61,272 bases of DNA from Syntrophomonadaceae bacterium (GCA_014360155.1 JACIYB010000001.1:1-61272), one strand, 5' to 3'. Shown: positions 34,742 through 61,012, counted from the stretch's first letter. Notes: a model not told the origin generated them from the sequence alone. Numbers and translations are program-made.

Positions 34742-34756
34742 GAAGGAAGTGACAGG

Positions 34757-42772: not shown

Positions 42773-42803
42773 AAGTGCATGGTGATGAAAAGAGGGATCA
42801 ATT

Positions 42804-43560
42804 GTGGCGCTGTATGAAAAATCAGTCAAACTCCTTTTCCGAGATATGATAAAAGACCTCGCTATTCAAAAAGGAGAAGTTATAGAGAGAGACAAAATAA
42901 ATTCCTGGTTCAAGACAAAATATCCACTCATAAAGCCTGGCACTATCTCAGCTCATATGCTTAAGTTGTCAACTAATGCCCCAAGCCGAATACATTACAA
43001 CGTTGATTCAAATGGTAAAAAAGATGATCTTTTTTTTTCAGATTGATAGCAAAAAGTTCCGACTCTACGACCAATCTTCTGATCCAGACCCTATCTATTT
43101 CAGACAAAAAGAAGATGAGAAAATAACGCCAGAACATGAAGGATCAGAAGAAGAGAATGGGAATGAATTCGCCTATGAGAAAGATCTTCAGAATTTCTTG
43201 GCAAAGAATCTATCCCTTATTGAGCCGGGTCTATCATTATATTTGGAAGAGGAAATCAGCGGTATCGAATTCCCGGTAGGGAACCGATTCATCGATATAT
43301 TGGCAATCGATAGTAATAATAATTATGTGGTTATAGAACTTAAGGTATCGCGTGGATACGACAGGGTTGTAGGCCAAATCCTTCGCTATATGGCATGGAT
43401 CAGAAAAAACCATGCGGAAGAAAGTCAGAAAGTACGGGGCATAATAATCGCCCGCGAGATTTCGGATGATCTTCTGCTAGCATGTTCTGAGATAAATAAT
43501 GTTGAGTTGTACGAATATAACTTATCGATAACGTTGAATAAAATAAAGAAAAATAGGTAA
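42804..43560 (+). pseudogene. NucS-like PD-(D/E)xK endonuclease-domain protein split by a +1 frameshift in a T9 tract
   Basis: ORFs 42804-43046 and 42976-43560 join seamlessly if one T is removed (…KKDDLFFQIDSKKFRLYD…). The C-terminal part has RFIDILAIDSNNNYVVIELKVSRGYDRVVGQILRYMAW. Confidence 0.75.
43030..43038 (+). repeat. T9 homopolymer at the frameshift site
   Basis: gatc-ttttttttt-cagattg. Nine consecutive T. Confidence 0.95.
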
Positions 43561-43644
43561 CTACCGCATCAACAGCACCAAGATATTATTAGCAAAAGCC
43601 GGCAGAAAATATTGGTCATGTAACTTTGACGGGGAGTTGAGAAG

Positions 43645-44871
43645 ATGGGCCGTATTCAACTGGGCTGGATCGATTATTCTTCGGAACACCGCAATAAAGT
43701 GATGGCGGTGTTGCATGCACTGACAGCTCCGGGGGCTGTCGACGAGCTTGGCATCGGCCAGATTCGAGACGGCTTTGCAAACCTGCTTTTCCCAGGTACA
43801 TCCACCATTCAGACCCGGGCAAAATATTTTTTTATTGTACCTTACCTATTAATGGAGTTGGAGCAGCAGCGCCACCTGACACCAAAATCTTTCCTTCAGA
43901 AGTTAAATGAGATGGAACTGGACATCATTGAACCTTTAAAAAAGAATGGAGAAAAGGGTGTAATTGGCGAAACCGCAGGGAGGGGATTGAAAAGAAAGCC
44001 CTCCAGTATCTATTGGAGTGGACTGCGCACCCTGGGCATGTTTCGCTACCCCCCTTTTTCCCTGGAGGATTATGCCCGGGCGACATGTGCTGTAAGTCAG
44101 GAACTGGCAACCCAACGGGCCATGGGGCGACGAACGGACGATGAGCAGGCACAGGATGATCCGGATGCTTACCAGAGTCCGGTGCCGGGCGGCTTTTGGC
44201 GCTGTCTTCCACCGCCGGAAGACTGGCGTAAGCAGATTACTATCCAATTGTCGGCTGAAGAAGCGGCTTATTTAAAAGATCGCATAAATAAAGCCCCTTT
44301 AACTCGAAATTCTCTCTTTGCCTATCTTGTAAACAAGGACCTGGAAACAATCCAGGCGATTCAAGATATTGAAGCCCTGGGGCAGCTATTTGATTTGCCG
44401 GACTATATCCGTTCGGTCTATGATATGGCCATGCGGTTCTCTGATTTTATTTATGGAGCAACTTTGCGCTACAATGTGATTCTTTCGGGCGGTGAAAACA
44501 AAAGGGCGCTGGAGGGCTGGGAAACCTGGTGCCAGTCAGCCTTTGCAACTCGTTCTTTTGCCGGGTATGACCCTAATGAAGCGATAGATTACCTGAGGGT
44601 TAATAATTATCGATTGCGCAGATTCCTACGGCAGTGGCATGAAAGCTACATGTCAGGTGATATCAATGCGGTGGATGAGTTGATCGTGCAGCGGGAAATT
44701 GAAATCAAGTCGCGTCAACGGGCCAAACTGCGCAACCCGTCTATGTATGTGTACCGGGAGGGAGATGGCATGCGGGGCGGCAAGTTGGATTACCGCTATA
44801 GTAATGCCAGGGTCATTCTCATAGATATTTTTAATGGATTGGAGAAAGGCCATGCTGAGACCGTCCAGTGA
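43645..44871 (+). CDS. Hypothetical protein (408 aa), first gene of the PLD-helicase operon; possibly DUF6361-like
   Basis: N-terminus LGWIDYSSEHRNKVMAVLHAL...VDELGIGQIRDGFANLLFPGTSTIQTRAKYFFIVPYL. I recognised no catalytic motif, and the family name is recollection only. Confidence 0.6.
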   Translation: MGRIQLGWIDYSSEHRNKVMAVLHALTAPGAVDELGIGQIRDGFANLLFPGTSTIQTRAKYFFIVPYLLMELEQQRHLTPKSFLQKLNEMELDIIEPLKKNGEKGVIGETAGRGLKRKPSSIYWSGLRTLGMFRYPPFSLEDYARATCAVSQELATQRAMGRRTDDEQAQDDPDAYQSPVPGGFWRCLPPPEDWRKQITIQLSAEEAAYLKDRINKAPLTRNSLFAYLVNKDLETIQAIQDIEALGQLFDLPDYIRSVYDMAMRFSDFIYGATLRYNVILSGGENKRALEGWETWCQSAFATRSFAGYDPNEAIDYLRVNNYRLRRFLRQWHESYMSGDINAVDELIVQREIEIKSRQRAKLRNPSMYVYREGDGMRGGKLDYRYSNARVILIDIFNGLEKGHAETVQ

Positions 44872-46639
44872 CAGATTAAATTACGGCGATTTACTCATAC
44901 CGCCGCCGGAATACCAGGCAGATTTCGCTTTAGGCACCACCTACAGCCTGGACTTGGAGGCACTGGTGGGTTTGCCCCTGGCTCTGTTTTTGTCTGAAGA
45001 AATGAACAAGAGCCTGTTAAATAATCCGATTGTAGCTCTGGAGGGTTTGCGCCGCAGTGCGGAGCGGTTTGCCGTCTTGTGCGAAGGCGGCCAAATTAAA
45101 GTGCCGCAAAACCAAAATACGGTGTTTTCTCTTTTGGAGGATAGTGTCTTTGAAGTAGTGCTGCCGAATAATTGGTCATTTCATCCGAAAATCTGGCTGA
45201 TCCGCTATCAGGGCGAGAGGAAACAGCCCCTCTACCGCCTTTTGGTGTTGAGCCGGAACCTGACCTTTGACAGAAGCTGGGACATGGCGGTATGTCTGGA
45301 AGGAAGATTAGCTGAAGGGGCAGAAGATGAAGCAGCAGCAAAACAGAATATGCCGCTCATAGCTTTTGTAGAATATCTGCAGGCAAGAGTAAAGAACCGC
45401 AAGAAGCGGGGTCAGATCTCAAAAACGCTGGAAGAACTGAAACAGGTCCGGTTCGAAACCAATGATCCTCATTATTCTGATTTCTCTTTTCATCCCTTGG
45501 GGATTCCGGGACATACAAAGCAGCCGAGTGAACTTTTTGATACATACAAGGACTTACTTGTTATCTCACCTTTTCTCAGCAAGGGCATGGTAGAAAGATT
45601 TAAGAAGCTGGCTCTCTCCGATTCTACCCGCACGTTAATAACGCGACGGACAGAAATTGCAAAACTGTCTCAGGAGATGCTGGAAGCATTTGATGTGTAT
45701 GGCCTGAAAGAAATGGTGGTAGAGGGAGAAGAGGGGTTGAGCGGTGACGATTTAAATGATGAAGCTTATCAAAACCAGGATATTCATGCCAAGTTTTACG
45801 CCCGTTCCAAGTACAGTCAGCACTCATTTTTCGTTGGTTCTGCCAACTGTTCTGAAAGTGCTTTTAGCGGTAACGTGGAATTCTTGTTGCAGCTGCGCTA
45901 CCGCAAACATGGATTTAAGATCCAACACCTGTTGGACGACTTATTCGGCAAAGATGACAAGGACAATCCTTTTGAACTGATTAAGGAGTTACCGGAAGTT
46001 GATACGCCTGATACTACTGCTTCTGATTTGCTGGAAAAAGCCATTAAGCAGCTATGCCGCACCCGTTCCAAGGCAAGGGTAATAAAAGAAGGCCAGCAAT
46101 ATCGAGTAAAGATTGAGTTTGCAAAAATTCCGGAAGAGGTGGATTTAACCATTGCCTCTATAACAGGGATACAGCCGGTTAAGCTGGAACCAGTAACAAT
46201 ACTACCCCTCCTGCCATTAGAGCAACTAAGTGAGTTTTACCAGGTGACCGCCTGCAAAGAAGAAACTGCTGTACGACGGATAATCAAGATCAAAACCACC
46301 GGTATCCCAGAGGAGCGGGATAAAGCAGTTTTTAGGTCAATCATCCGGGACCGAGATACATTTATGAAGTACGTGGCTTTTTTGCTGTCCGATAGCCTGC
46401 TTCTTTCCAGCCTGGAGCAAATGGACGCCGAACGGTTGGGTAAAGGCAAATGGAATGTTAGCTGGTTGCAGGCGCCAGTCTTATATGAGAATATGCTGAA
46501 AACTGTGGCTAGGGAACCGGAACGCTTAAAAGAGATTGAACGGGTGATAAAGTTAATCGATGATCAGGAGATAATTCCGGAGGATTTTAATGAACTGTAT
46601 CAAATTTTCAGCCAGGCAGCAAAGAAGGTGAAAAGATGA
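44852..46639 (+). CDS. Phospholipase D-family nuclease with two HKD motifs
   Basis: HKD 1 is SFHPKIWLIRY...LSRNLT. HKD 2 is IHAKFYARS...FVGSANCSESAF. The ATG at 44852 follows a GGAGAAAGG RBS and overlaps the upstream gene by 20 nt (the track ORF starts at 44834). Confidence 0.85.
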   Translation: MLRPSSDRLNYGDLLIPPPEYQADFALGTTYSLDLEALVGLPLALFLSEEMNKSLLNNPIVALEGLRRSAERFAVLCEGGQIKVPQNQNTVFSLLEDSVFEVVLPNNWSFHPKIWLIRYQGERKQPLYRLLVLSRNLTFDRSWDMAVCLEGRLAEGAEDEAAAKQNMPLIAFVEYLQARVKNRKKRGQISKTLEELKQVRFETNDPHYSDFSFHPLGIPGHTKQPSELFDTYKDLLVISPFLSKGMVERFKKLALSDSTRTLITRRTEIAKLSQEMLEAFDVYGLKEMVVEGEEGLSGDDLNDEAYQNQDIHAKFYARSKYSQHSFFVGSANCSESAFSGNVEFLLQLRYRKHGFKIQHLLDDLFGKDDKDNPFELIKELPEVDTPDTTASDLLEKAIKQLCRTRSKARVIKEGQQYRVKIEFAKIPEEVDLTIASITGIQPVKLEPVTILPLLPLEQLSEFYQVTACKEETAVRRIIKIKTTGIPEERDKAVFRSIIRDRDTFMKYVAFLLSDSLLLSSLEQMDAERLGKGKWNVSWLQAPVLYENMLKTVAREPERLKEIERVIKLIDDQEIIPEDFNELYQIFSQAAKKVKR

Positions 46640-49600
46640 TTGATCTGGCAGCAAAAGAAAAAGAAATACTGTCGGGCTTGAAAGATTTCCAACTGGCAAC
46701 GGTAAACAGAGTAGATGATTTATTCCGAAACGGGTACCACCGTGTCCTGGTAGCGGATGAAGTAGGCCTGGGAAAAACACTGGTGGCCAAAGGTGTTATT
46801 GCGAAAATGTCCTGCTTTCATCAGAAAAGATCTATGAAAGACTTGTTTAAAGTAGTTTATGTTTGTTCCAATCAGAGCATTGCCGGGCAAAATCTAAAAA
46901 AATTAAAGGTGCATCCGGGGGTCAAAGTGGACGGACTTTCAGATACCCGCTTGTCGATGCAGCATCTGAAGATCTATGAACAGATGCATGATCCTACCAT
47001 CCGGGAAGGTTTTGTGCAGCTTATTCCATTAACACCAGGCACTTCTTTTACCATGACGGGCGGCTGTGGCAGTGTGCTGGAGCGAGCACTTATTTATGCC
47101 ATTTTCCGACACATTTATTTCTTTAAGCCATATTTACCACAGCTGGAGGAATTAATGACATCCTATGCGATGAAGAGCTGGCCGTACTGGTCAAACAGAT
47201 TCGAACAGCTTGTGCTAGAGGTGGATCAAAAAAGTGACGGAGCTTATTTACACCATATACTGAAAAAAGTAAGTGACCGCCTGGAGGCAGACCCTGAATT
47301 GTTAAGGTTGGCAGAAAAAGTATTTGCTTCTATAGAGACAATCGGCTACCTCAAAACTCAAAAAGCCAACTACCTGATTTCGCAGTTTCGTAAAATGATG
47401 GCTGAAATCAGCGTGGAGATGATGGACGCCGATCTGGTCATTATGGACGAGTTCCAGCGTTTTCCAGAACTCATAAAACTGGACGAAGATAACGAAACGG
47501 CCATGCTGGCCCGTCGGTTTTTCAGTCCAGAAATAGAGAAAAAACATCACCCTTACATTCTTCTGTTGTCGGCGACTCCCTATAAATTGTATTCCACCCT
47601 GGAGGAAATTCGGGAAAACCGCAAGGATGAACATTATGAAGAATTCATGCAGGTGATGCACTTTCTTTTTGAACACCAGGCGGATCTGCGCCAGAAATTT
47701 AACATTACCTGGAAAAACTACTCCTTGACATTAAATGAAGCTTCTTATCGCGATACGGCGCTTATAGTAGCACGCAAGCGAGAGGCGGAAGAATGTCTGT
47801 ATAATGGGGTCTGTCGGACGGAGCGCATGAAGGTGCCAGGAGCGTCAGACTTAATTGATGTAGAAACCAGAAATGGATCGCTAAAGGTACAGGAAGATGA
47901 TATTCTGTCCTTTGTGGAGATGGACAAAGCGCTTTCTGCGGTAGGACTAAGCGGGGCAGCTTCGGTAGAATACATTAAGTCTGCGCCCTTCATCATGTCG
48001 TTTATGCAGCACTACAAACTGAAACAGAAGCTGCAGGACAAACTGAAGTTAGAGCCAGAGAAGCTACCGCTGCTGAAAAGTCAGAGACTGTGGGTAAATC
48101 GCAAGAAGGTTGCTAGATACAAAGACTTAAAGGTGAACCATGCCCGCTATAATAAGCTGCGGGAAGTGGCACTGCCACCTCAGGCAGAAAAACTGCTGTG
48201 GGTACCGCCCGCGCGGCCATATTACCCGATGGGTGGACCGTTTAAAAGCCAAGAAGGTTTTTCCAAGACACTGGTCTTTTCGGCATGGGAAATGGTTCCG
48301 CGGGCCATCGCCGCCTTATTATCCTATGAAGCAGAACGTTTGACTGTCGGTGAGCTGATTCGTAAAACACCAAAAACTGAGCATGAAAACCGCAGCTATT
48401 TTGCTAAAAATAGGTTTCCGGCGCCCAGGATTAAATTTGCCATGAAGAACAACGAACCGGAGAATATGAATCATTTGTGTCTATTGTATCCTTCTGCGAC
48501 CCTGGCTTCTCTTTATGACCCAATAGGTGGAATGAATCGCGGCTTAAACCTGCGACAAATTCGCACAGAAATTCGTCAAATAATTAAAGACCAACTGGAG
48601 CAGATGAAGTTTCATATACAGCGAGGAGATCAGCGGCAGGACGAACGGTGGTATTACATGGCGCCACTGCTGATGGACCAAAAACATCCAGGTATGGAGG
48701 CATGGTTTCAAAACCTGGTATTGCGAAACTTAACAGAAGGTTTGGACGGAGTGGACAGGTATGAGGATGATAAAGGGATTATTTCCAAACATCTGCAACA
48801 GCTGAAAAGATTGTATGATGAACCGGGATTGCTGAACATGGGTCGGATGCCCCGGGATCTCGAAGAGGTCCTTGTAAATATGGCTATTGCTTCCCCGGCA
48901 GTGTGTGCGCTGAGAATGCTGGATCCTGGTACCCCAGGCTCAGTGGATTTGGCATTGCAGCTGGCAAAAACCATAGTGGACCGTTTTAATACTCAAGAGG
49001 CCATTGCCATCGTGGATTTATCATATGGTAAGGCGGGTGAGGGGGTTCATTGGAAGAGTATCCTGCGGTATTGTATGGACGGAAATCTGCAAGCCGTCCT
49101 GGATGAATATGCCCATATGTTGTTAGAAGGATACGATTTCAGCCAATGGGAACGTAAAGAGCGCAATGTCGTGCTGATTAAAGATATGACCCGGACACTG
49201 AAGACCCATACAGCCAGTTACAGTGTGGATACCTACCAGCATTTCAGTGATAGTATTAAGGATCCTAAAAAAATAAGCCGTAAAGAGCGCTATATGCGCA
49301 TGCGTTCCAGTTATGCCGTCGGATTTTATGACACTAAAAGTGAAGGTAAAAGCGTTCAGCGGAAAGATAATATCCGATTAAGTTTTAATTCACCTTTCCG
49401 ACCTTTTGTCCTGGCCACTACCTCTATTGGACAAGAAGGGCTGGACTTTCATTACTATTGTCGTAATGTTGTTCATTGGAATCTGCCAGGAAACCCCATT
49501 GATTTGGAGCAGCGGGAAGGGCGTATCAACCGTTATAAATGCCATGCTATCCGACAGAATATCGCCTTTAAATATGGGAAAATGTTCTTCCAATCGGACA

Positions 49601-49956
49601 TTTGGCAGGAAATGTTTAACCAGGCCCAAAAACAAGAAAGCAACAGTGAGACCAGTGACCTTGTCCCTTTCTGGTGTTTGCCAGAGCAGGAGAATGAACC
49701 GCAGCCCTTCAAAATCCAGCGGGTTATTCCACTGTACCCCATGAGCAGAGACAGCGCTCGCTATGAACGCCTGATCAAGATTCTCTCATTATACCGGTTA
49801 AGCCTTGGACAGGCTAGACAGGAAGAACTAATTGATTACCTTTTCGAGAGAGGATTTGAGGAGATGGGGGAACTTTTTATGAATTTAAGTCCATACTTTA
49901 AGGAAGGACGAGGTAAACCTGGAATAGCAAAAGATAGCAAGGAGAACAAATCATGA
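46636..49956 (+). CDS. SNF2/DEAD-like superfamily 2 helicase (1106 aa)
   Basis: ATGA overlap with the PLD stop. Motif I VADEVGLGKT, II LVIMDEFQRF, III LLLSATPYK, V TTSIGQEGLDF, VI EQREGRINRY. Confidence 0.88.
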   Translation: MIDLAAKEKEILSGLKDFQLATVNRVDDLFRNGYHRVLVADEVGLGKTLVAKGVIAKMSCFHQKRSMKDLFKVVYVCSNQSIAGQNLKKLKVHPGVKVDGLSDTRLSMQHLKIYEQMHDPTIREGFVQLIPLTPGTSFTMTGGCGSVLERALIYAIFRHIYFFKPYLPQLEELMTSYAMKSWPYWSNRFEQLVLEVDQKSDGAYLHHILKKVSDRLEADPELLRLAEKVFASIETIGYLKTQKANYLISQFRKMMAEISVEMMDADLVIMDEFQRFPELIKLDEDNETAMLARRFFSPEIEKKHHPYILLLSATPYKLYSTLEEIRENRKDEHYEEFMQVMHFLFEHQADLRQKFNITWKNYSLTLNEASYRDTALIVARKREAEECLYNGVCRTERMKVPGASDLIDVETRNGSLKVQEDDILSFVEMDKALSAVGLSGAASVEYIKSAPFIMSFMQHYKLKQKLQDKLKLEPEKLPLLKSQRLWVNRKKVARYKDLKVNHARYNKLREVALPPQAEKLLWVPPARPYYPMGGPFKSQEGFSKTLVFSAWEMVPRAIAALLSYEAERLTVGELIRKTPKTEHENRSYFAKNRFPAPRIKFAMKNNEPENMNHLCLLYPSATLASLYDPIGGMNRGLNLRQIRTEIRQIIKDQLEQMKFHIQRGDQRQDERWYYMAPLLMDQKHPGMEAWFQNLVLRNLTEGLDGVDRYEDDKGIISKHLQQLKRLYDEPGLLNMGRMPRDLEEVLVNMAIASPAVCALRMLDPGTPGSVDLALQLAKTIVDRFNTQEAIAIVDLSYGKAGEGVHWKSILRYCMDGNLQAVLDEYAHMLLEGYDFSQWERKERNVVLIKDMTRTLKTHTASYSVDTYQHFSDSIKDPKKISRKERYMRMRSSYAVGFYDTKSEGKSVQRKDNIRLSFNSPFRPFVLATTSIGQEGLDFHYYCRNVVHWNLPGNPIDLEQREGRINRYKCHAIRQNIAFKYGKMFFQSDIWQEMFNQAQKQESNSETSDLVPFWCLPEQENEPQPFKIQRVIPLYPMSRDSARYERLIKILSLYRLSLGQARQEELIDYLFERGFEEMGELFMNLSPYFKEGRGKPGIAKDSKENKS

Positions 49957-51757: not shown

Positions 51758-52899
51758 ATTCTGCTGAAAAAAGCAATTTCCTGATTACTCTTCTATAAGT
51801 CTTAGGTTGTTCCTTGATAACTTGATCATGGTTTGGCACTACCGCTTGGCTTAGATCAGCTTGGCTATTCGGTTCAGATTATATCCCCAGATGGCTCCGC
51901 CCACCCAGCGCCGGCAGCCGTTCAATCCCCGGTAAAGTGTCCGGTCGAGTCCATAGCGCCTCTTCAGCTCACTGATTGTTCCTTCTTGACCGGCCCGCCA
52001 GCGCTGAAGCCGGCGGAACCATGGCCGGCGCTCGTGTTCAGCACGCCGGCGGCTGCGTTTGCCTTTAAAAGGAAGGCTGACTTTTTGCACACCCATTTCC
52101 TTTAAAGCGCGTTCGTTGGCCGGAGCCCAGAATCCCCGGTCGGTAGCAGTGGCTTGAGGCACTCGCCCGGTGCGCTGAATGTGTTCCCTGACTCCGGGGA
52201 CGAGTAGTTCTTTATCCGGAGGGTTGCCTATCATCACGTCATACTCGGTCACCAGCCGCTCTGCACTTTCCGTCAGCCGTACTTTGTTTCTGTTCTTTAA
52301 GAGCCTTTCTTCCTGAGCTTTGCAGACGAGGTGGGCGTTTAACTCGGCCATGTGGTCACTGCCGCTGGCATCCAGCCGCTGGCGGATCTTGGACAGACTG
52401 CTGGGATGGGGCACCGGCTTGTTCCAGGGAATCCGAAAGATTTGGCGCCAGCTGATCCGGTCGCTGACCAGGGCGCAAAGGTGCCGGTCGCTGAGCCCGT
52501 ACTGGTACTTGAGTGCTGTCATGCGCAAGTAGGTTTCCGCCGGCACGGAGGGCCGTCCCAAACACTGATGGTATTTGTCCCGAAACGGTGTGAAGAAACG
52601 CTCATCATCCAGCCAGGCGTCCAGTTTGGCCAGATCTTCCGGAAGCTCAAGCACCTCGGGCGGCAATAGTAAATCCACCAGTGATATTTGTCGGCTCTCT
52701 TCCTGCCGGATTCGCAGTATTATTTTTCACCCCCGCAGGAAACTGGGCTTTTGCGTCGAACCATGATCAACATAGGGATTTCCTCCTGTGCGTTTGTTTT
52801 GTTTTCTTCTCCTTAAACAATTCGCCACAGGAGTCGAAATCCCTTGATTTATATGCATTTTCAAGGAACTTTTTGGCTGACTTTTTCAGCAGAATCTAG
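51754..52899 (-). mobile_element. IS5-family-like insertion sequence, probably an internally deleted derivative
   Basis: Terminal inverted repeats attctgctgaaaaa (51758-51771) and tttttcagcagaat (52882-52895), flanked by TTAG on the left and CTAG on the right. Confidence 0.75.
51851..52678 (-). CDS. IS5-like transposase (275 aa; DUF772-type N-terminus, C-terminal DDE part, apparently no first catalytic Asp region)
   Basis: N-terminus GRPSVPAETYLRMTALKYQYGLSDRHL, then ATATDRGF and RAGQEGTISELKRRYGLDRTLYRGL. It looks short for this architecture. Confidence 0.7.
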   Translation of the reverse strand: MDLLLPPEVLELPEDLAKLDAWLDDERFFTPFRDKYHQCLGRPSVPAETYLRMTALKYQYGLSDRHLCALVSDRISWRQIFRIPWNKPVPHPSSLSKIRQRLDASGSDHMAELNAHLVCKAQEERLLKNRNKVRLTESAERLVTEYDVMIGNPPDKELLVPGVREHIQRTGRVPQATATDRGFWAPANERALKEMGVQKVSLPFKGKRSRRRAEHERRPWFRRLQRWRAGQEGTISELKRRYGLDRTLYRGLNGCRRWVGGAIWGYNLNRIAKLI

Positions 52900-53424
52900 C
52901 TACAGTTAAGGATATATTCACCAAGGAAATAACCGGCTGGGCTACAGCCAATAACATGAAAACAGAACTTTGCCTTAGAGCCTTAAAAAACGCTGTAATA
53001 AGGCATAGACCGCCCAAGGGACTCATTCATCATTCTGATCGAGGTGTCCAATATTGCAGCAAAGAATATCAAGCTTTACTAAAGAAAAATAAGATGGTTT
53101 GCAGTATGAGCCGCAAAGGTAACTGTTATGATAACGCTTGTGCGGAAACATTCTTCAGCACCATCAAATGCGAAATGCTTTATCACAAAAAATATAAAAC
53201 AAGAGAAGAAGCCCGTCGGGACATATTCTGGTATATAGAAGTCTTCTACAACCGTAAGAGAAGGCACCAGTCCCTGGGGTATCTGACTCCGGCAGAATTT
53301 AAGCGTAATTACATAGCCAAGTTAGTAGCCTAGAGCCAGAATTAGGAATACGAAAAACTAAGCAATTGTATGATTTAAGCTAAAAACCTAACTCTGGAGT
53401 GTCCGTTTTATCGTGAAAACCTCA
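52899..53424 (+). pseudogene. IS3-family OrfB (rve) 3' fragment with the right inverted repeat
   Basis: The frame reads VKDIFTKEITGWATANNMKTELCLRAL...HSDRGVQYCS...NCYDNACAETFF...RRHQSLGYLTPAEF. It starts abruptly at the IS5-like boundary and ends ...cgtgaaaacctca (53424). Confidence 0.8.
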
Positions 53425-53539: not shown

Positions 53540-53886
53540 ATGACTATCCCTGAAAAATTTATTAGAGAAGCGGCTAGAAAAGGGCAAATCAAATACAGTA
53601 ACCACGCACAATTACGCATGGGTGAAAGAAAAATCCCGCGTCTGCTTGAAAAATCCCGCGTCTGCTTATTGATAATGCAATTTTAAATGGCGAAGTTCTC
53701 GAAATTCAAAATTTTCCTGAGAAAGATGTTAAAGTTGTTTTCCAGTCAATTCCTGGAACAAACGATGATTTCTATGTTATTGTAGCAGCATCTTATCCTC
53801 AAGTTGTTGTAGTAAGTGTATGTTATTTTATGGAGGAGGTATGGGAAGAACTTGGCAACCTATACCAAAGGAGGGAAAAAAGGTGA
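53540..53886 (+). pseudogene. DUF4258-family toxin gene inactivated by a 20-bp tandem duplication
   Basis: MTIPEKFIREAARKGQIKYSNHAQLRMGERKIPRLL is followed by the duplicated unit. Removing one unit restores a 108-codon frame that ends in a GTGA overlap with the antitoxin start. Confidence 0.8.
53628..53667 (+). repeat. Perfect 20-bp tandem duplication (gaaaaatcccgcgtctgctt, two copies)
   Basis: 53628-53647 is identical to 53648-53667. Confidence 0.95.
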
Positions 53887-54281
53887 GATGTATATTTTGT
53901 AACCAAAAAATGAATAAGGTTACAACTTCTACTACTACGAAATGGGGAGAATATGAAGTTACCATAAAAGGCCTTCCTGCCTATGAATGTCCAGAATGTG
54001 GAGAAAAAATTTTCAGCTCTTCAACAGTAGACATAGTACAAAGCCTGGCAGCTGGCTTGGCGGATAGTATGCAAAAAGATAGGCCAGATACTTTAAACGT
54101 TACTGAAACTGCTGAGATGTTAAGGGTTTCAAACCAGACGATATACAATATGTTACGAGATGGCAGACTGAAAGCAAAAAAAGTCGGCAGAGAATGGCGG
54201 TTTGACCCTGCCGAAGTCAGAAAACTTCTGCCTGATCCCCCTGATCAAATAACTGCAGCTGCAAGAAGCAATAAAATATGA
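53883..54281 (+). CDS. Antitoxin: YgiT/MqsA-type Zn finger fused to an excisionase-type HTH
   Basis: GTG at 53883 follows a GGAGGG RBS. Motifs CIFCNQ...YECPECGEKIF and LNVTETAEMLRVSNQTIYNMLRDGRLKAKKVGREWRF. The track ORF begins earlier, at 53820. Confidence 0.75.
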   Translation: MRCIFCNQKMNKVTTSTTTKWGEYEVTIKGLPAYECPECGEKIFSSSTVDIVQSLAAGLADSMQKDRPDTLNVTETAEMLRVSNQTIYNMLRDGRLKAKKVGREWRFDPAEVRKLLPDPPDQITAAARSNKI

Positions 54282-54436
54282 CAAATATAACTAAGTGGAG
54301 TTGGGTCGTAGAGAGTGATAAACTAATGACAGTTATGAACAATTGGAAAAAGAAGCTCATTTTTTTGCTGCATGTGTATTAGCTCCTCATATTGTATTAT
54401 ATAAACTCGTTGACGATGAAAGTGAAGACTATGGTT

Positions 54437-54676
54437 AATAACCCCTCCCTTCGCCGATGCTCAGGAAGGGGCTTGCGCAAGCGAGCTTATTGACTAGGGG
54501 GCTTGCTGTAAGCGAGCAGCAGTTATCCAGGTCATGGCACCCCGGGGTGTTCCGCAAGCTCCAGGCAGCTGCCGCCAGTGGTTAAAAGTCCTGAAGGGGT
54601 AGGGACGGTGCTGCTGGCACGAAAAGTCTGGGTAACAACCCCGATGCGGCCCTAACTCTGAAAGGAGGTACACTCT
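54437..54676 (+). ncRNA. Putative IscB-associated omega RNA scaffold, copy 1 (includes the IS200/IS605-type left-end hairpin)
   Basis: A ~240-nt GC-rich, stem-rich non-coding stretch immediately upstream of the IscB PLMP N-terminus. It is repeated at 56546, with compensatory base changes between copies. Confidence 0.6.
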
Positions 54677-55140
54677 GTGTTAGTGTACGTTATCAACAAG
54701 CACGGGAAACCTTTGATGCCGTGCAAACCTAGTAAAGCAAGAAAGCTGCTTAAAGATGGCAAAGCAAAAGTGGTTCAAAGAACGCCGTTTACTATTCAAC
54801 TGCTTTACGGCAGCTCGGGCTATAAACAGCCTATAACGTTAGGTAAGGAAGTGTAACCGCAGATTATTTAAAGGTGTCAGAAGCCATAACTGCCGAGCGA
54901 TATATTAAAGGTTTTCAGCGTTACGATAAGGTGCTCTGGCGCGGCATAGAGTGTTTTATCTTTGGAAGAAGAAAAACCGGATACTTTGATTTACGCAAGC
55001 TGGACGGCACAAAGGTTCATGCTTCAGCTAAAGCCGAAGAGCTGAAGCTTTTGGAAAAGGCTAGAACATTTCTTGTAGAAAGGAGGAAAAGGCGTCTCCT
55101 CCCCTCCCTTATGGAAGGGGTCTCCGCCGCCATGGTTTAG
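54677..55140 (+). pseudogene. iscB: IscB remnant 1: PLMP N-terminus (59 codons) joined by deletion to the C-terminal domain
   Basis: The N-terminus reads [56 protein letters not shown] and then stops. ORF 54874-55140 (ERYIKGFQRYDKVLWRGIECFIFGRRKTGYFDLRKLDGTKVHA) is the IscB C-terminus. RuvC, bridge-helix and HNH regions are absent. Confidence 0.75.
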
Positions 55141-56529
55141 ATGAAACCAAAACTTATTAGCACTGAAGAAGCTGTTCACCTGGATCGTAAGCAGGTAAAA
55201 TCTCTCTACAAACAATACATCAACCCCAGTTTTGCGACGATGTTGAGCCTCTTAAATTTCGACAAAAGGTTCGTCCACGCTGAAGGAATCTATGTCTGGG
55301 ATGACCAGGGAAAACGCTATTTGGACTTTCTTGGAGGCTACGGTGCCCTCAACTTTGGTCATAACCATCCGTGTATTGTTTCCATCGTTGAACAGGTAGC
55401 AAAATGGCCCAACTTGCTTCAGGCTTCCTTGAGTACCTTCAGTGCTGTTTTAGCTTACAACCTCGCCCAGCTAACCCCTGGCAAAATTGAGCGGAGTTTT
55501 TTTTGCAATAGTGGAGCCGAAGCTGTTGAAGGGGCATTGAAGCTGGCAAGAGCAGCAACAAAAAAGAAAAGAATTATTTACTGTGAAGGAGCCTTTCACG
55601 GTAAAACCTTTGGGGCCCTATCTGTAACTGGGCGCAGTAAGTATCAAGAACCCTTCAAGCCATTGCTTTTAGACTGTGAGCCTGTGCCCTATGGAGATGC
55701 TGGAGCCCTCGAAAAAAAACTCCAAGATGGTGACGTGGCTGCGTTTATCCTGGAACCAATTCAAGGTGAGGGAGGCATCAAAATTCCTCCCCAGGGTTAT
55801 TTACAAAAAGCAAGAGAATTGACTAGGAAGTATGATGCCCTGCTGATTATAGATGAAATCCAGACAGGCTTTGGGAGAACAGGGAAAACCTTTGCCTGTG
55901 AACACGAAGGTGTAGAACCAGATGTCATGTGCCTGGGTAAGTCATTAGGAGGGGGTATAATGCCCCTCGCAACTTTTACCACTACTTCAGATATCTGGGA
56001 TAAAGCTTACGGTGGTTTTGAGCGCTGTCTTCTCCATACATCTACATTTGGGGGCAACACGAGGGCTGCTGCAGCAGGTGTTGCTACTCTTCAGGTGCTT
56101 ATTGAGGAGAACCTTGCGAACAAGGCATGGAAAAATGGACAATATTTTCTTACAAAGCTCCAGGAGCTTCAAGGAAAATACCCTGGATTTATCAAAGAAG
56201 TGAGGGGCCGCGGTCTCCTGATTGGAATTGAGTTTAACCAAATTGCAGGTGATTTCTGGGATAAGCTGACAGCGGGGAAATTGAACAGAATTGCCGAGGA
56301 ATATCTGGCTGCCTTTGTTGCTGCAGAGCTATTGAATAAATACCAGATCATCACTGCCTATACCTTGAATAATCCCAATGTTATTCGCTTGGAGCCACCA
56401 CTGATTGTGATGAGAGAACAGCTTGATCAGGTCGTGGTAGCACTAGAAGATATTTTCAAGAAATACAAAAGTCTTTGGAAACTTGTTTTGGGAAGCAGTA
56501 AATATTTTCTGTCTTCGTTCAAACAGTAG
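55141..56529 (+). CDS. Class-III PLP-dependent aminotransferase (acetylornithine/putrescine/GABA aminotransferase-like)
   Basis: Motifs YLDFLGGYGALNFGHNHP, FFCNSGAEAVEGALKLAR, LIIDEIQTGFGRTG and the Schiff-base region CLGKSLGGG. Confidence 0.9.
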   Translation: MKPKLISTEEAVHLDRKQVKSLYKQYINPSFATMLSLLNFDKRFVHAEGIYVWDDQGKRYLDFLGGYGALNFGHNHPCIVSIVEQVAKWPNLLQASLSTFSAVLAYNLAQLTPGKIERSFFCNSGAEAVEGALKLARAATKKKRIIYCEGAFHGKTFGALSVTGRSKYQEPFKPLLLDCEPVPYGDAGALEKKLQDGDVAAFILEPIQGEGGIKIPPQGYLQKARELTRKYDALLIIDEIQTGFGRTGKTFACEHEGVEPDVMCLGKSLGGGIMPLATFTTTSDIWDKAYGGFERCLLHTSTFGGNTRAAAAGVATLQVLIEENLANKAWKNGQYFLTKLQELQGKYPGFIKEVRGRGLLIGIEFNQIAGDFWDKLTAGKLNRIAEEYLAAFVAAELLNKYQIITAYTLNNPNVIRLEPPLIVMREQLDQVVVALEDIFKKYKSLWKLVLGSSKYFLSSFKQ

Positions 56530-56545
56530 TGGTATTATTTGCGTC

Positions 56546-56786
56546 AATAACCCCTCCCTTCGCTGACGCTCAGGAAGGGGCTTGCGAAAGCAAGCTTATT
56601 GACTAGGGGGCTTACTGTAGGTAAGCAGCAGTTATCCAGGTGATGGCACCCCGGAATATTCCGCACGTTCCGGGCAACTGCCGCCGATGGTTAAACAGTC
56701 CTGAAGGGGTAGGGACGGTGCTGCTGGCGTGACAAGCCTGGACAACAATCCCGATGCGGCCCTAACTCCGAAAGGAGGTATACTTT
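56546..56786 (+). ncRNA. Putative IscB-associated omega RNA scaffold, copy 2
   Basis: Collinear with 54437-54676. By hand count, about 29 differences in ~240 nt, several of them compensatory in stems. Confidence 0.6.
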
Positions 56787-58003
56787 GTGTTAGTGTACGT
56801 TATTAACAAGCATGGCAAACCTTTAATGCCGTGCAAACCTAGTAAAGCAAGAAGGCTGCTTAAAGATGGCAAAGCAAAAGTGGTTCAAAGAACACCGTTT
56901 ACTATTCAACTGCTTTACGGCAGCTCGGGCTATAAACAGCCTATGCGGTAACGAATAAGCAAGAAGTTTATTCAGCAGAAGTTAAGCTGCGAAACGATAT
57001 TGTCAAACTTAACTCGGAAAGGCGTCAGTACAGGCGTTTCCGGCGTTACCGCAAGACATGGTACCGCCAACCACGTTTTTTAAATCGCAAAAAAACTAAA
57101 GGTTGGCTCCCGCCTTCGATACAGCATAAACTGGACAGCCACATCAAGGTAATTGAACAGGTAAAGAAGATGCTTCCTGTAACCCATATAAACATTGAGG
57201 TAGCTGCCTTTGATATTCAAAAGATTAAAAACCCCGGTATTTCTGGGACAGACTATCAAAATGGTGAGCAAGCAGGTTTTTGGAATGTGAGGGAATACGT
57301 CCTTTACCGGGATAACCATACCTGCCAAGCATGTAAAGGCAAGTCGAAAGACCCGGTGTTAGAAGTTCACCACATAATTTCCCGGCAGGTGGGCGGCGAC
57401 CGGCCGGAAAACCTGATTACCGTCTGCAAAACCTGTCACGAAAAATACCACCGTGGCAAATTAAAACTAGATTTCAAGCCATCTAAGGGTTTCAAGGCAG
57501 AAACCTTCATGTCTACCGTAAGGTGGAAGTTGGTTAACGCGCTAAAAGAAACAGGGAATACAGTAAGCCACACTTACGGTTATCTCACCAAACAGCGAAG
57601 AACAAACCTTGGCCTGCCCAAAAGTCACGTCAACGATGCTTTTGTAATCGCCGGTGGGGATTATCAGCATAGAAGCAGGGTATGCTACTTTATTCAGCAC
57701 AGCAGGTAAGGAAGTGTAACCGCAGATTATTTAAAGGTGTCAGAAGCCATAACTGCCGAGCGATATATTAAAGGTTTTCAGCGCTACGATAAGGTGCTCT
57801 GGCGCGGCATAGAGTGTTTTATCTTTGGAAGAAGAAAAACCGGATACTTTGATTTACGCAAGCTGGACGGCACAAAGGTTCATGCTTCAGCTAAAGCCGA
57901 AGAGCTGAAGCTTTTGGAAAGTTCTAGAACATTTCTTGTAGAAAGGAGGGAGAGGCGGCTCCTCCCCTCCCTTACGGAAGGGGTCTCCACCGCCAGGGTT
58001 TAG
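56787..58003 (+). pseudogene. iscB: IscB pseudogene 2: frameshifting deletion across RuvC-I and an in-frame TAA before the C-terminal domain
   Basis: The PLMP N-terminus stops at 56951. The frame from 56936 carries the Arg-rich bridge helix (ERRQYRRFRRYRKTWYRQPRF), RuvC-II (INIEVAAFD), HNH (CQACKG...EVHHIISRQVGGDRPENLITVCKTCHEKYH) and RuvC-III (HVNDAF). After a TAA at 57707-57709, the same frame continues into the C-terminal domain. Confidence 0.8.
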
Positions 58004-58219
58004 ATGAAGTTAAACGGGTTGGCTCCAGTTCATTGCCAGACTGAATGCTATAGCCGGCACGATTTTCAGAGCTTTATGGAGGCATATGCCGAGGTAGCAA
58101 GGTATATAGAGTATTACAACCGTAAAAGGAGGCATGATAGCCTGAGGTATATGAGTCCTGAGGAGTTCCACCAAGCATTTATGAGCAAATTAATGAAAGT
58201 AGAATCTTTTGCGGTATAA
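58004..58219 (+). pseudogene. Integrase-core (IS3-like rve) C-terminal fragment
   Basis: Motif FMEAYAEVARYIEYYNRKRRHDSLRYMSPEEFH. Its ATG lies in the sequence shared with the other IscB element end. Confidence 0.65.
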
Positions 58220-58283
58220 TTTCTATAATTAGGGGGGGCTAAATAGTTTCTTTTTTCGATAGCAACCTTTAAAGATATGTACC

Positions 58284-58706
58284 TCAGCGGAGTTCCGAGT
58301 TTCCCAATATCTCAAAACCTTGTTCTGCAAAGTGGGGGTCGAAGGTGAAAGCCGTGTTTATGCCGCTGCGGCGCATTACCGCGAAGCTCACGCAGTCCAC
58401 AAGGCTCAAGCGCCGCCGGCCGGCGGCCAGAACAGCGTCCACTCCTGCAGCATGGAGGTCCGGCTCTACCCAGAACACTTTCAAGCCGGGATACACGTTT
58501 GTGCAGAAGAGGCGCAGCGCTTCCATTCCCAGGCGGCGCTGAATGACGGCACAGCTTTCGACAAGCACGTAACTGCTGATCACGAGAATTGTTCCTGTAC
58601 GGATGAGCTCTTTCCAGATGGAGGCTGCCTGGGCGTGGCAGCGGTCTGAAGCGTCCAGAACCGCCAGAAACGCGGAAGTATCGACGAACACCTTTTTAGC
58701 GGTCAC
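58284..58706 (-). CDS. vapC: PIN-domain toxin VapC
   Basis: Motifs VFVDTSAFLAVLD, YVLVES and LSLVDCVSFAVM (acidic PIN residues). It overlaps the upstream antitoxin by 11 nt. Confidence 0.85.
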   Translation of the reverse strand: MTAKKVFVDTSAFLAVLDASDRCHAQAASIWKELIRTGTILVISSYVLVESCAVIQRRLGMEALRLFCTNVYPGLKVFWVEPDLHAAGVDAVLAAGRRRLSLVDCVSFAVMRRSGINTAFTFDPHFAEQGFEILGNSELR

Positions 58707-58968
58707 TGTTCAACCCCTCCACTGTTTCGGCAAAGTAACGGTCGTGGTGTTTGGCCAGATCCCCAAGGCCGGACCTAAACTTGCCGACGACATCCAGCAT
58801 CCGTTCCACGCGGCCCTGCGGTTCTTTTTGCGCATATTCCTCCAGCAGTTGGTCTACCGCCCGGCGGATCAGTTCCGCTATAGAGACTTCTTCTTTAAGG
58901 CTAAGCTGCTTGAGAAGCGCTGCCTGTTTTTCCGTTAGTTGAACCTGAGTCCGCACCACTGATACCAA
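58696..58968 (-). CDS. vapB: Ribbon-helix-helix (CopG-like) antitoxin VapB
   Basis: TQVQLTEKQAALLKQLSLKEEVSIAELIRRAVDQLL is an RHH pattern. It sits upstream of and overlaps vapC. Confidence 0.75.
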   Translation of the reverse strand: MVSVVRTQVQLTEKQAALLKQLSLKEEVSIAELIRRAVDQLLEEYAQKEPQGRVERMLDVVGKFRSGLGDLAKHHDRYFAETVEGLNSDR

Positions 58969-59403: not shown

Positions 59404-60447
59404 TTACGCATCTATCCAATCGTTGAAGACTTTTATTTCGTCAAAATCCATTACCAAACATATTTGTTCCCGCTTATTGTTAAATCTCTCATTAGTAAAC
59501 AACAGCTTATTGTATCTACTTGTAAGACGCGACTCCTTGCGTGTTACAGCAATGACTCCTGCTACCTTGTGCGAAAAGGCAGAAGAAGCAAAAAATCCAT
59601 TCTCCCGTCTTCTCCATTGAGTTTTATTGTTACGACAAGTCACTACTTCATCTCCAAATACTGCCTCACCTAAATCAATCTTATGACGGCGCTCAGTACC
59701 TATCTCTATAGCAACTAAATTAATATTTTCATCATCTGTATTCCACTCAAATGCTTTTGCTGCGTTAATTAGACTGCGTCTGATCTGCTCCCTACCCTGT
59801 CCAGTAACATTTACAAAATTTAAATCTTCAGCAACACCCATGGTCAAACCTTGTAAGATAGCTTTATTGGGTTTCCAAAAGGTCAGCTTGGCTTTGATAC
59901 GACCAGAAGATAGATACGGATATTCGTTGTTATCGATACTGTCAGCCGCAACTTCAGACATAAATTCAATTAGTGTTTCAATATCTGAACAAGCAAAATC
60001 TTCGGATAAACTAAGCCCGAAAAATTTATTAACCGGGATTTTCCGTGCACGTTCTTTTATCTTCTCAATAATCTTTGATTGTCTATTCTCCCGTTCTGCT
60101 TTTGATAACCTTTTCATTTGAATCCAGAATGTTATGCCATTTTTACGTAGAACGAAGTCAGGAGGTCTCTTCAAAGTCCTTCCGTTGTATTCTTTAGGTT
60201 CATATAAAAGCGGAACATCGGCGGGATGTTTGTCAATGAGTTCATAAGCAAAATTATGTTCAGCAAATACATCCTCCACATTTCTATTGGCATTGGCTAA
60301 CCGTTTATTAAGCCGTGATAATCCCCTTTCCTCCAATGCCGCAATACGAGTAGCGAGCTCCTGTTTTTCTGTTTCCGATGCTTCATATCTTCTTATCCCT
60401 CCAAATATAGTAGTAGCTTTCTTAATAGCGTCGGCCATATTACTCAT
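59404..60447 (-). CDS. Hypothetical protein (347 aa from the ATG at 60447)
   Basis: A GGAAGGAGAG RBS lies 7 nt before the ATG (MSNMADAIKK). Low GC. There is a weak PD-x(n)-QxK-like motif (RPPDFVLRKNGITFWIQMKR). No family recognised. Confidence 0.6.
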   Translation of the reverse strand: MSNMADAIKKATTIFGGIRRYEASETEKQELATRIAALEERGLSRLNKRLANANRNVEDVFAEHNFAYELIDKHPADVPLLYEPKEYNGRTLKRPPDFVLRKNGITFWIQMKRLSKAERENRQSKIIEKIKERARKIPVNKFFGLSLSEDFACSDIETLIEFMSEVAADSIDNNEYPYLSSGRIKAKLTFWKPNKAILQGLTMGVAEDLNFVNVTGQGREQIRRSLINAAKAFEWNTDDENINLVAIEIGTERRHKIDLGEAVFGDEVVTCRNNKTQWRRRENGFFASSAFSHKVAGVIAVTRKESRLTSRYNKLLFTNERFNNKREQICLVMDFDEIKVFNDWIDA

Positions 60448-60511
60448 TAATAATCTCTCCTTCCCACCGCTTGACAAGAATGGCTCACTACCAGATTACT
60501 GTAGACCGTGA

Positions 60512-61012
60512 TCTCTTCAAGGGTTATTTGTCCGGGATGATGGCTTGGCCCGGCTAGTTGAGAACATAGTCAACCAGATACTCGATGCCCAAGCCGCCGA
60601 ACAACTGAAGGCCAGGCCCTACGAACGCACCGAAGAACGCCAGGGGTACCGCAACGGGCACCGGGATAAAGTACTTAAGCCGCGTGTAGGGAAACTTGCG
60701 CTTATGGTCCCCCGGCTGCGGCGCGGGCACTTCTCCACGGAGCTTTTCGAGCAGTACCGAAAGCGGCTGCGCACCACCAACGGGGTCGAACGGCTCAACC
60801 AGGAAATCCGCCGGCGGGAGCGGGTGATCCGAATCTTCCCTAACGAGGAGTCGGCTGTGAGGCTGAACGGGGCGGTGCTTGTGGAGATTGATGAGGCGTG
60901 GACTACAGGAAAGCGCTACTTTGATATGATAGAGTACTGGGAGTGGAAGGCTAACACGGAAAAACAGCACAAGGAAGTGACCAATGCCAATACTCAGGTA
61001 AATGTAGCTTAA
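60512..61012 (+). pseudogene. IS256-family (Mutator-type) transposase with a large internal deletion
   Basis: N-terminal motifs (LQGLFVRDDGLARLVENIVNQILDAQAAEQL, YERTEERQGYRNGHRDKVLKPRVGKLALMVPRLRRGHF) join directly to the C-terminal tail (TTNGVERLNQEIRRRERVIRIFPNEESAVRL). The DDE core is absent. Confidence 0.8.

Follow-up and report, generated by a model that had tools for sequence, protein, structure and literature searches.

Two IscB elements and the gene between them

The window analysed here, a stretch of 61,272 nucleotides from a Syntrophomonadaceae bacterium, holds two IscB elements in direct orientation on the plus strand, with a class-III aminotransferase gene between them. Copy 1 (54434..55140) measures 707 nt and is a deletion derivative that retains the omega RNA, the first ~56 and the last ~100 IscB codons, and the end hairpin. 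Copy 2 (56543..58003) measures 1461 nt. The aminotransferase gene (55141..56529, plus strand) codes for 462 amino acids (Pfam Aminotran_3, E = 8e-105) and is full length, being colinear throughout with homologs of 460-465 amino acids. A previous, sequence-only reading of this DNA had placed two degenerate IscB/omega-RNA copies here in direct orientation, and this was borne out by matches to the HEARO model of Rfam, by Pfam and by the mapped lesions described below.

The exact ends of the elements required correction. Both copies had been said to begin at a common sequence at 54437 and 56546. The shared block is real, but the true start lies 3 nt leftward, at 54434 and 56543, with GTYAATAA. The proposed common end at 55145 and 58008 had to be given up: each element ends with the IscB stop codon, at 55140 and 58003, and the last five nucleotides, ATGAA, are flanking DNA. 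That the latter lie outside the element is shown by the scarless alleles of two other assemblies that lack copy 2 (L001 and L003). The format of the element is thus GTYAATAA...TTTAG; its ends carry GTCAATAACCCCTCCC and CCCCTCCCTTACGGAAGGGG, and a circle junction would read ...GGGTTTAG joined to GTCAATAA....

The two copies are 88% identical in their first ~150 nt, 93% in the ~250 nt that follow and 97% in the final 300 nt. An 18-mer common to both starts has no third occurrence in the window. When the omega-RNA-end 18-mer was used in a DNA-pattern scan, only seven matches were returned, all unrelated and attributable to chance, and metagenome and viral contigs scanned in a similar way contained no match to the deletion junction that marks the lineage. 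Copy 1 is also present in L001, at 99.6-100% identity.

Each element begins with an omega RNA

The region upstream of each iscB remnant had been taken for an IscB omega RNA, an assignment that held when checked against the Rfam model for this RNA (HEARO, RF02033). Copy 1 scored 114.2 bits at 54434..54656 (plus strand, model positions 1-211 of 211) and copy 2 scored 120.9 bits at 56543..56766 (plus strand, full model), both above the HEARO gathering score of 83 bits. Model position 1 coincides with the first base of each element, and the GTYAATAA with which the element starts pairs with TTATTGAC. The consensus helices are kept, with 70 of 71 consensus pairs preserved in copy 1 and 69 of 71 in copy 2, and the 28 positions at which the two RNAs differ include two double compensations. 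Across seven relatives, compensatory changes were found in 26 pairs. Relatives with an intact IscB score 119-145 bits, compared with which the window copies (114 and 121) stand at the low end.

A well-described element of this type is ISGst5 of Geobacillus stearothermophilus, in which the omega-RNA scaffold lies at the right end and the guide lies outside the element (Meers et al. 2023, bioRxiv 10.1101/2023.03.14.532601). In the convention of that study, the omega-RNA end is RIGHT and the iscB 3' end, beside the target-adjacent TAM, is LEFT. By the same geometry, and with a length of 16 nt that we infer, the flanks next to HEARO position 1 would act as 5' guides: GAAAGTGAAGACTATG for copy 1 (54418..54433, plus strand, outside the element) and TAGTGGTATTATTTGC for copy 2 (56527..56542, plus strand), the latter being directly joined to ATGAAG in the allele that lacks the element.

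Both IscB genes are disrupted

The reconstructed protein matches Pfam RRXRR (E = 1.4e-58) and HNH, as well as thousands of proteins of 410-490 amino acids, part of which are named 'RNA-guided endonuclease IscB'. Its nearest intact relatives are 417-aa proteins with 82% identity, and one intact relative, P0003, matches the PDB structures of IscB, 7xht and 7utn (E about 5e-43). The order of parts is that of OgeuIscB, the protein in these structures (PLMP, RuvC-I, bridge helix, RuvC-II, HNH and RuvC-III), and the RuvC-I motif LGIDPG aligns with LGVDSG. However, OgeuIscB has 496 amino acids, whereas members of the window clade have about 417-420; moreover, unlike OgeuIscB, copy 2 lacks RuvC-I, copy 1 lacks most of the protein, and a stop codon removes the C-terminal region. 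An alignment to intact IscB relatives, recommended by the sequence-only reading, served to map the lesions.

In the iscB pseudogene of copy 2 (56787..58003, plus strand), RuvC-I had been thought lost to a frameshifting deletion. Mapping against intact relatives confirmed this and gave the deletion a length of 43 nt: it lies at 56943/56944 and takes the VDSGYTYIGLS segment, including the catalytic Asp. A second lesion had escaped notice, namely a 5-nt insertion (+5) within 57695-57704 followed by an 8-nt deletion (-8) at 57751/57752. Together these two indels create an in-frame TAA at 57707-57709, so that IscB stops at residue 321 and its C-terminal TAM-interaction region is severed. Programmed frameshifting over the +5/-8 patch was considered and, on the sequence, rejected; it would require the ribosome to shift by -1 where the site is not slippery, and then by +1.

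Copy 1 carries the -8 deletion too, while the site of the +5 insertion falls within the stretch it has lost. An internal deletion in copy 1 between AGGT microhomologies had been proposed; the deletion is there and removes 797 nt relative to the full-length relative L005, but the microhomology is AGG in that comparison. What remains is an N-terminal iscB remnant with the PLMP region (54677..54856, plus strand), which meets the deletion junction at AGG 54841-54843, and an 88-codon ORF from the C-terminal region (54874..55140, plus strand), whose TAG stop codon forms the final three nucleotides of the element. No recognisable ribosome-binding site was seen in the sequence for the 88-codon ORF. 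Neither copy possesses the full set of RuvC and HNH catalytic residues together with the TAM-interaction region. Judged by these lesions, both window nucleases are plainly inactivated, and the copies are relics of members of the family. The +5/-8 double indel is common to relatives elsewhere.

End hairpins and a fixed target motif

A search of the 61-kb window for the motif CCCCTCCCTT-N(2-14)-GGAAGGGG gave exactly four hits (54442-54471, 55101-55120, 56551-56580 and 57964-57983), where shuffled sequences led us to expect 0. Hence the motif is present at both ends of each copy and at no other site in the window, in agreement with the proposal that matching subterminal hairpins give the elements an IS200/IS605 (IS605-type) arrangement. 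For the hairpin of copy 1 beside the 3' end of iscB (55101..55120, plus strand), folding predicted for single-stranded DNA gives a stem of 8 bp and a loop of 4 nt, and copy 2 has a predicted hairpin in the corresponding place (57964..57983, plus strand). On these sequence features, the end hairpins are putative binding sites for the transposase TnpA. A role as transcription terminator was discarded, as the sense strand has no T-run after the hairpin; a promoter and terminator scan of 54100-58400 gave fewer matches than shuffled sequences did.

ATGAA is the reverse complement of TTCAT, the target/TAM motif, and TTCAT is the TAM that adjoins the left end of ISGst5 (Meers et al. 2023, bioRxiv 10.1101/2023.03.14.532601). 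ATGAA follows directly after the element at five independent sites (copy 1, copy 2, L004, L066 and L074) and also in many remoter relatives. Beside copy 1 (55141..55145, plus strand) it constitutes the start codon of the aminotransferase gene plus 2 nt; beside copy 2 (58004..58008, plus strand) it starts a 71-codon ORF with a C-terminal fragment of an IS3-family transposase. A search for a full-length relative of this IS3 fragment found only short fragments, starting MEAYAEV. In this IscB clade, ATGAA coincides at 14 of 19 sites with the start codon of a gene that lies downstream and is oriented alike, compared with 22% of control ATGAA sites. Because the target is often a start codon, the stop codon of the element abuts the start codon of the host gene.

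Copy 2 is present or absent on its own

Two public assemblies from near-identical strains, L001 and L003, keep copy 1 and the aminotransferase gene while copy 2 is exactly missing; the site is occupied in the window and in L002. Over 3.1 kb, 3 substitutions and 2 indels separate the flanks in L001 and L003 from those in the window. The empty allele reads ...GGTATTATTTGC|ATGAAGTTAAAC..., with the junction ...TATTTGC|ATGAAGTT..., and bears neither a scar nor a target-site duplication. As strains with copy 1 and the aminotransferase gene have this scarless empty site, copy 2 must have come or gone alone. Insertion beside a fixed motif without duplication, together with scarless excision, is expected of IS605-family IscB elements, and the polymorphism of copy 2 lends indirect support to mobilisation by a Y1 (HUH) TnpA.

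Very probably, therefore, a non-autonomous IscB/omega-RNA transposon of the IS605 family, of the same kind as ISGst5, inserted twice and independently at this locus, the separateness of the insertions following from the retention of copy 1 and the aminotransferase gene in strains without copy 2. Segmental duplication or recombination was also weighed, in which host recombination doubled one element and unequal exchange put the aminotransferase gene between the halves. The direct orientation, the 97% identity of the 3' parts and the occurrence of the -8 deletion in both copies would all fit such a duplication. However, identity falls to 88% in the omega RNAs, with compensatory changes, and each copy has full ends, a distinct left flank of its own, and ATGAA at its right. 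Moreover, a scarless single-copy empty allele fits transposition, whereas recombination between the copies would delete the aminotransferase gene too; the L001 and L003 alleles, in which copy 1 and the gene are both kept, refute this scheme, and we regard it as extremely unlikely.

The aminotransferase gene is a bystander

The sequence-only reading had seen in the arrangement a composite or the product of recombination between elements. Neither was supported, given that copy 2 alone is polymorphic, that the omega RNAs are 88% identical, and that ATGAA is the target at two sites. In its explicit form, the composite would have relied on copy 2 for its left end and on copy 1 for its right end, and so have moved a 3.57-kb block (54434-58003) with the aminotransferase as cargo, and L001 and L003 would reflect a later excision of copy 2. 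The copies do lie in direct orientation with complete ends, and the aminotransferase gene stands alone within an island of mobile elements and defence genes. In addition, homology to an 89% identical ortholog sets in precisely with the ATG and runs out close to the stop, with synteny lost on either side; the neighbours of the ortholog (an AIRS-domain gene, lexA, hfq, miaA and mutL) are absent from the window.

Nonetheless, a search of public assemblies for the aminotransferase gene with its flanks as a unit, a check recommended earlier, found the exact protein on three contigs, every one of them this locus, and the whole block was seen neither at more than one site nor absent as a unit. The 89% ortholog sits in a core-genome setting without IscB flanks. 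Omega RNAs that are only 88% identical mean that neither copy arose recently from the other and that the two form no matched pair; independent insertion beside ATGAA suffices for both junctions, and a coincidence of the start of the IS3 fragment with the junction could not be demonstrated. Hence a composite transposon appears very unlikely.

We conclude that the aminotransferase gene is a bystander host gene that belongs to neither element. It lies between the copies because one ATGAA is its own start codon and the other, the target of copy 2, lies 14 nt beyond its stop codon. The sequence upstream of copy 1 was also considered as the native 5' leader of the gene, and was set aside when its alignment to the upstream region of the ortholog was equalled by 391 of 2000 shuffles. 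The gene and the elements may once have been relocated jointly, given that homology to the ortholog is confined to the ORF and that synteny does not extend beyond it.

A proposed transposase acting from elsewhere

The claim that the window has no Y1 tnpA, and that both copies are non-autonomous, agrees with our searches. Pfam found no Y1 tnpA among the small ORFs of the window, and tblastn with TnpA probes gave no window match, although the same probes did detect TnpA in the positive controls, L027 and L036. This absence is typical, because only about 1.5% of iscB genes are near a tnpA gene (Meers et al. 2023, bioRxiv 10.1101/2023.03.14.532601).

According to the mechanism described in the literature, a Y1 transposase TnpA encoded elsewhere would excise the element as single-stranded DNA and paste it beside TTCAT, that is, directly 5' of ATGAA on the iscB sense strand. 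Transcription of the omega RNA would begin outside the element, and its 5' guide would consequently be flanking sequence. An active IscB would then cut the empty donor joint, in which a guide match is followed by ATGAA, and recombination would restore the element. In the window, both nucleases have been lost through the +5/-8 indels of the lineage, with the 43-nt deletion in copy 2 and the 797-nt deletion in copy 1 in addition. A transposase in trans could still move the copies, as the omega RNAs are near-intact and both end hairpins are kept.

A truncated IscB lineage

The double indel is shared by all four sampled copies, and the truncated lineage occupies at least three sites. No intact relative with more than 90% identity was found among 5.8 billion proteins, and a scan of species-representative genome contigs with the 321-aa protein P0006 found only distant relatives, with at most 70% identity. 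Differences among the broken copies lean synonymous (14 synonymous and 4 non-synonymous for copy 1 versus L004, p = 4e-7). Such a selection-like pattern is not predicted by simple decay, unless the copies recombine with functional lineages.

One study showed that an engineered IscB without the TAM-interaction region is stable and binds single-stranded targets; natural single-strand-targeting or split IscBs were sought by its authors and not found (PMC13284715). The window copies, L004 and L005 might represent a natural IscB without this region, of 321 aa and possibly with an 88-aa C-terminal piece, that is still spreading and selected with its omega RNA, a prospect to which we attach very little probability. 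Such a protein, alone or with the product of the 88-codon ORF, would work with the omega RNA by binding single-stranded nucleic acid or as a split enzyme, and the window copies alone would bear extra, private lesions. The shared double indel, the missing intact relatives, the synonymous bias and the engineered protein are all in keeping with this possibility, as are omega RNAs that hold 69-70 of 71 pairs despite 28 differences and two double compensations.

However, the abrupt shifts of identity within the elements indicate that they are mosaics, formed by recombination with functional lineages, and recombination of this kind would import selection-like patterns. In the closest pair, copy 2 versus L004/L005, the middle 249 codons give a pN/pS of 0.37, which is indistinguishable from 1 (p = 0.18). 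The truncated form is limited to a single narrow lineage, whose divergence does not exceed about 7%; no ribosome-binding site can be recognised for the 88-codon ORF, and both window copies are plainly inactivated. A living truncated enzyme is thus highly improbable, and the selection-like substitutions of the broken lineage most likely stem from recombination between copies. The lineage merits a test at the bench only if recombination fails to explain the substitution patterns; were the possibility true, it would provide a natural single-strand-targeting or split IscB of the kind sought in PMC13284715.

Relation to known elements

The window elements resemble ISGst5 in several structural respects: the omega-RNA scaffold is at one end with the guide outside, iscB lies toward the other end, TTCAT/ATGAA abuts the iscB 3' end, similar hairpins occur at both ends, and there is no internal tnpA. 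The upstream gene is also oriented as iscB, as is reported for most genes upstream of iscB (Meers et al. 2023, bioRxiv 10.1101/2023.03.14.532601). Unlike in ISGst5, the nuclease is inactivated in both window copies, and the window protein is only about 60% identical to that of a Geobacillus-related relative from Anoxybacteroides (L018). Going by the names of the aminotransferase homologs, the host also differs, being apparently an uncultured representative of Bacillota. Copy 1, internally deleted with both ends kept, is also akin to the protein-free IS200/IS605 derivatives (the minimal elements of Meers et al.). It differs from them in that its omega RNA is complete and two short remnants of the IscB ORF persist, and only one such copy was seen, which therefore does not make an amplified family.

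The finding adds a new member, though a decayed one, to a well-described class of transposons, and is largely ordinary, because the kind of element is known, the copies landed separately, and the gene is a bystander. Alone, two more decayed copies with a bystander rather than cargo between them are of little importance. They do provide a natural example of a nuclease-dead IscB element that some near-identical strains carry and others precisely lack, as the peel-and-paste model expects once the homing nuclease has been lost.

Results

Copies, ends and the empty alleles

As the sequence-only reading had claimed, a direct-repeat search and pairwise alignment recovered two copies of one block, both on the + strand, at 54434-55140 (copy 1, 707 nt, split by a large internal gap) and 56543-58003 (copy 2, 1461 nt). 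Identity between them is 88% in the first ~150 nt, 93% in the next ~250 nt and 97% in the last 300 nt. The 18-mer at the block start is unique to the two copies, and the 61-kb window contains exactly four instances of the hairpin motif CCCCTCCCTT-N(2-14)-GGAAGGGG (0 expected by chance), at the positions that this reading had named; all four end hairpins are essentially intact.

In public assemblies, the exact protein of the class-III aminotransferase gene between the copies (55141..56529, +) is found on three contigs, all from the window's locus. One of them, L002, shows no difference from the window, copy 2 included. In the two others, L001 and L003, window position 56542 is joined directly to 58004 (...GGTATTATTTGC|ATGAAGTTAAAC...); L001 retains copy 1 and the aminotransferase, and over 3.1 kb its flanks show 3 substitutions and 2 indels relative to the window. 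Copy 2 is here a scarless presence/absence polymorphism, running from GTCAATAA to GGGTTTAG (56543-58003) with no target duplication and no scar, and its absence beside a retained copy 1 is evidence that the two copies are separate. Because the empty alleles make this joint, ATGAA, previously counted as the element's final five bases, belongs to the flank, and the element is 56543-58003. At five independent sites, those of copy 1, copy 2, L004, L066 and L074, the element is directly followed by ATGAA, which also lies at or beside the stop codon of numerous more distant relatives. With these small boundary corrections, the original observation is confirmed.

Very often in this IscB clade, a co-oriented downstream ORF starts at the ATG of the ATGAA flank: this is so at 14 of 19 sites, compared with 22% when every ATGAA in these loci is counted (p = 2e-6). 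The element stop codon therefore directly abuts the host start codon (window 55138-55145 and 58001-58008; L004 1489-1496; L066 7261-7269; L074 5806-5813; and others). No statement of such abutment in IscB elements was found in the literature searched.

L001 also lacks a perfect 20-nt tandem duplication present at window 53628-53667 (GAAAAATCCCGCGTCTGCTT x two). The duplication breaks a 108-aa DUF4258 ORF, intact in L001, that adjoins an HTH_17 gene weakly matching MqsA-type antitoxins.

Omega RNA and IscB

HEARO (RF02033), the Rfam model of the IscB omega RNA (gathering score 83), matches over its whole length on the + strand of both copies, at 54434-54656 (114.2 bits) and 56543-56766 (120.9 bits), each match beginning at the first repeat base; the range among relatives whose IscB is intact is 119-145 bits. 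The consensus fold derived from seven relatives has 71 base pairs, with compensatory changes in 26. Copy 1 keeps 70 and copy 2 69 of these pairs, both omega RNAs being essentially intact. The IscB reading frame lies 3' of each omega RNA, preceded by a strong AGGAGG ribosome-binding site. The reconstructed protein has Pfam RRXRR (E = 1.4e-58) and HNH matches, and resembles thousands of 410-490-aa proteins (best, 82% identity), some named 'RNA-guided endonuclease IscB'. For P0003, an intact relative, the solved IscB structures 7xht and 7utn are hits at E about 5e-43, with the RuvC-I motif LGIDPG aligned with LGVDSG. These matches, with the lesions mapped below, bear out the proposed degenerate, non-autonomous IscB-omegaRNA elements. 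The stated absence of a Y1 tnpA also held: tblastn probes, with TnpA in L027 and L036 as positive controls, found no Y1 transposase in the window.

Lesions and substitution pattern

Lesions were mapped by alignment to L066 and L074, which are intact relatives, and to L004 and L005, near-identical copies found in other samples. In copy 2, an in-frame TAA (57707-57709) results from two indels, a +5 insertion within 57695-57704 and a -8 deletion at 57751/57752, and stops IscB at residue 321, ahead of the C-terminal region interacting with the target motif (TAM). Both indels, absent from the earlier account, are common to copy 2, L004 and L005; copy 1 has the -8 deletion, and its +5 site falls within its lost stretch. 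Private to copy 2 is a 43-nt frameshifting deletion between 56943 and 56944; with it the RuvC-I segment is gone, catalytic aspartate included, a loss that had been read correctly. The internal loss in copy 1 likewise stands, as a 797-nt deletion, with AGG (54841-54843) rather than aggt as the microhomology. Given these three lesions (+5/-8, 43-nt and 797-nt), both nucleases are dead.

The truncating patch is shared by all four sampled sub-lineage copies (only the -8 being retained in copy 1), and no intact relative of >90% identity was found among 5.8 billion proteins. The patch lies at window 57695-57760 and 54866-54890, and recurs in L004 and L005. The sub-lineage copies differ mostly synonymously (copy 1 vs L004: 14 synonymous, 4 non-synonymous, p = 4e-7), and the 28 differences between the omega RNAs of copies 1 and 2 disrupt no more than 3 pairs, two double compensations being among them. 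A synonymous bias among truncated copies, with omega-RNA helices kept, might suggest that an IscB without the TAM-interaction region, or a split IscB, remains under selection; natural variants of such a type are raised in one discussion, which states that no evidence of them was found (PMC13284715). However, pN/pS of the closest pair is indistinguishable from 1 (p = 0.18) and identity shifts abruptly along the elements, and we give continued selection hardly any credence. Because of these shifts, recombination between element copies appears the likeliest cause of the bias.

The aminotransferase between the copies

The aminotransferase is full length (462 aa; Aminotran_3 E = 8e-105) and colinear with 460-465-aa homologs from the first residue. 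Its 89% ortholog, which has no IscB flanks, lies in a core-genome setting, with an AIRS-domain gene upstream and lexA, hfq, miaA and mutL downstream. Homology of the window to this ortholog is limited to the ORF, none of these neighbours is in the window, and the stretch upstream of copy 1 has no detectable relation to the ortholog's leader; from these observations, the gene may have been relocated at some earlier time. Such relocation is the sole point in favour of a single transposon formed by copy 1, the aminotransferase and copy 2, the composite once suggested. The block was seen as a unit nowhere else, the sole observed polymorphism takes away copy 2 alone, and the two omega RNAs are only 88% identical, making a composite very unlikely. 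The other suggestion, a product of recombination between elements, likewise lacks support. By landing directly on the ATG, copy 1 would have cost the aminotransferase its native leader. Expression, if any, would require read-through followed by re-initiation at TAG|ATG, a junction with no Shine-Dalgarno sequence at the usual distance.

Surroundings

A four-tRNA gene cluster (471-1040) at the window start is followed by housekeeping genes, among them ffh, rpsP, rimM, trmD and rplS. A defence island (31050-49956) comprises DUF499, DUF3780, a DUF1156 methyltransferase and a PLD-helicase (31050-40398), a PDC-S11 candidate (41780-42772), a NucS/Shedu-like nuclease (42976-43560) and ZacA-ZacB-ZacC (43645-49956). 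The IscB copies sit in a graveyard of mobile elements: other transposon remnants (27931-29730, 51851-52678, 52956-53333, 58004-58219 and 60545-61012) include Mu/Tn7-like genes (AAA_22, Mu-transpos_C, rve), a DDE_Tnp_1 transposase, two IS3 C-terminal fragments and an IS256 (Mutator family) fragment. Copy 2 is closely followed on its right by a VapBC-type toxin-antitoxin module on the - strand (58284-58968), made up of a PIN-domain gene and a ribbon-helix-helix gene. A 357-aa ORF (59404-60477, -), which has no Pfam or PADLOC match, is conserved in L001, where the product has 347 aa.

Discussion

In IS605-family IscB elements, the omega-RNA scaffold forms the transposon right end and the guide is the 5'-adjacent flank, and transcription must therefore begin outside the element; genes upstream of iscB are mostly co-oriented with it, and tnpA is nearby for only about 1.5% of iscB genes (Meers et al., bioRxiv 10.1101/2023.03.14.532601). 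In ISGst5, TnpA and IscB both recognise 5'-TTCAT-3' abutting the left end (same source). The window copies match this anatomy exactly: TTCAT is the reverse complement of their flanking ATGAA, and each copy lies downstream of a co-oriented gene, copy 1 of the HTH_17 gene and copy 2 of the aminotransferase. All sequence-level features defining such an element are present in both copies except nuclease integrity.

Intact relatives occur in other settings. L074 encodes P0001, the closest (417 aa, 82% identity), whose nuclease and omega RNA seem to be intact; there (5750-5811) and in L075, the iscB 3'-end hairpin lacks its 13-nt core, and TnpA may be unable to move the L074 copy any longer. P0003 (79% identity; L066-L073) lies directly before an RNase H gene in a phage-like setting (DNA ligase, helicase, RecA, SpoIIID-like protein, sigma factor), and the left flank of its element in L066 is unlike that in L068.

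By analogy with the literature, TnpA supplied in trans would excise and insert the element as single-stranded DNA beside TTCAT, and an active IscB-omega RNA would cut the empty donor joint (guide match, then ATGAA), forcing the element to be copied back. With IscB dead, homing could not repair excision, and for that reason empty alleles like those of L001 and L003 could persist. These alleles could be excision products or, equally, the pre-insertion state. The two copies are degenerate, non-autonomous IscB/omega-RNA elements, a new, decayed member of a well-known kind.
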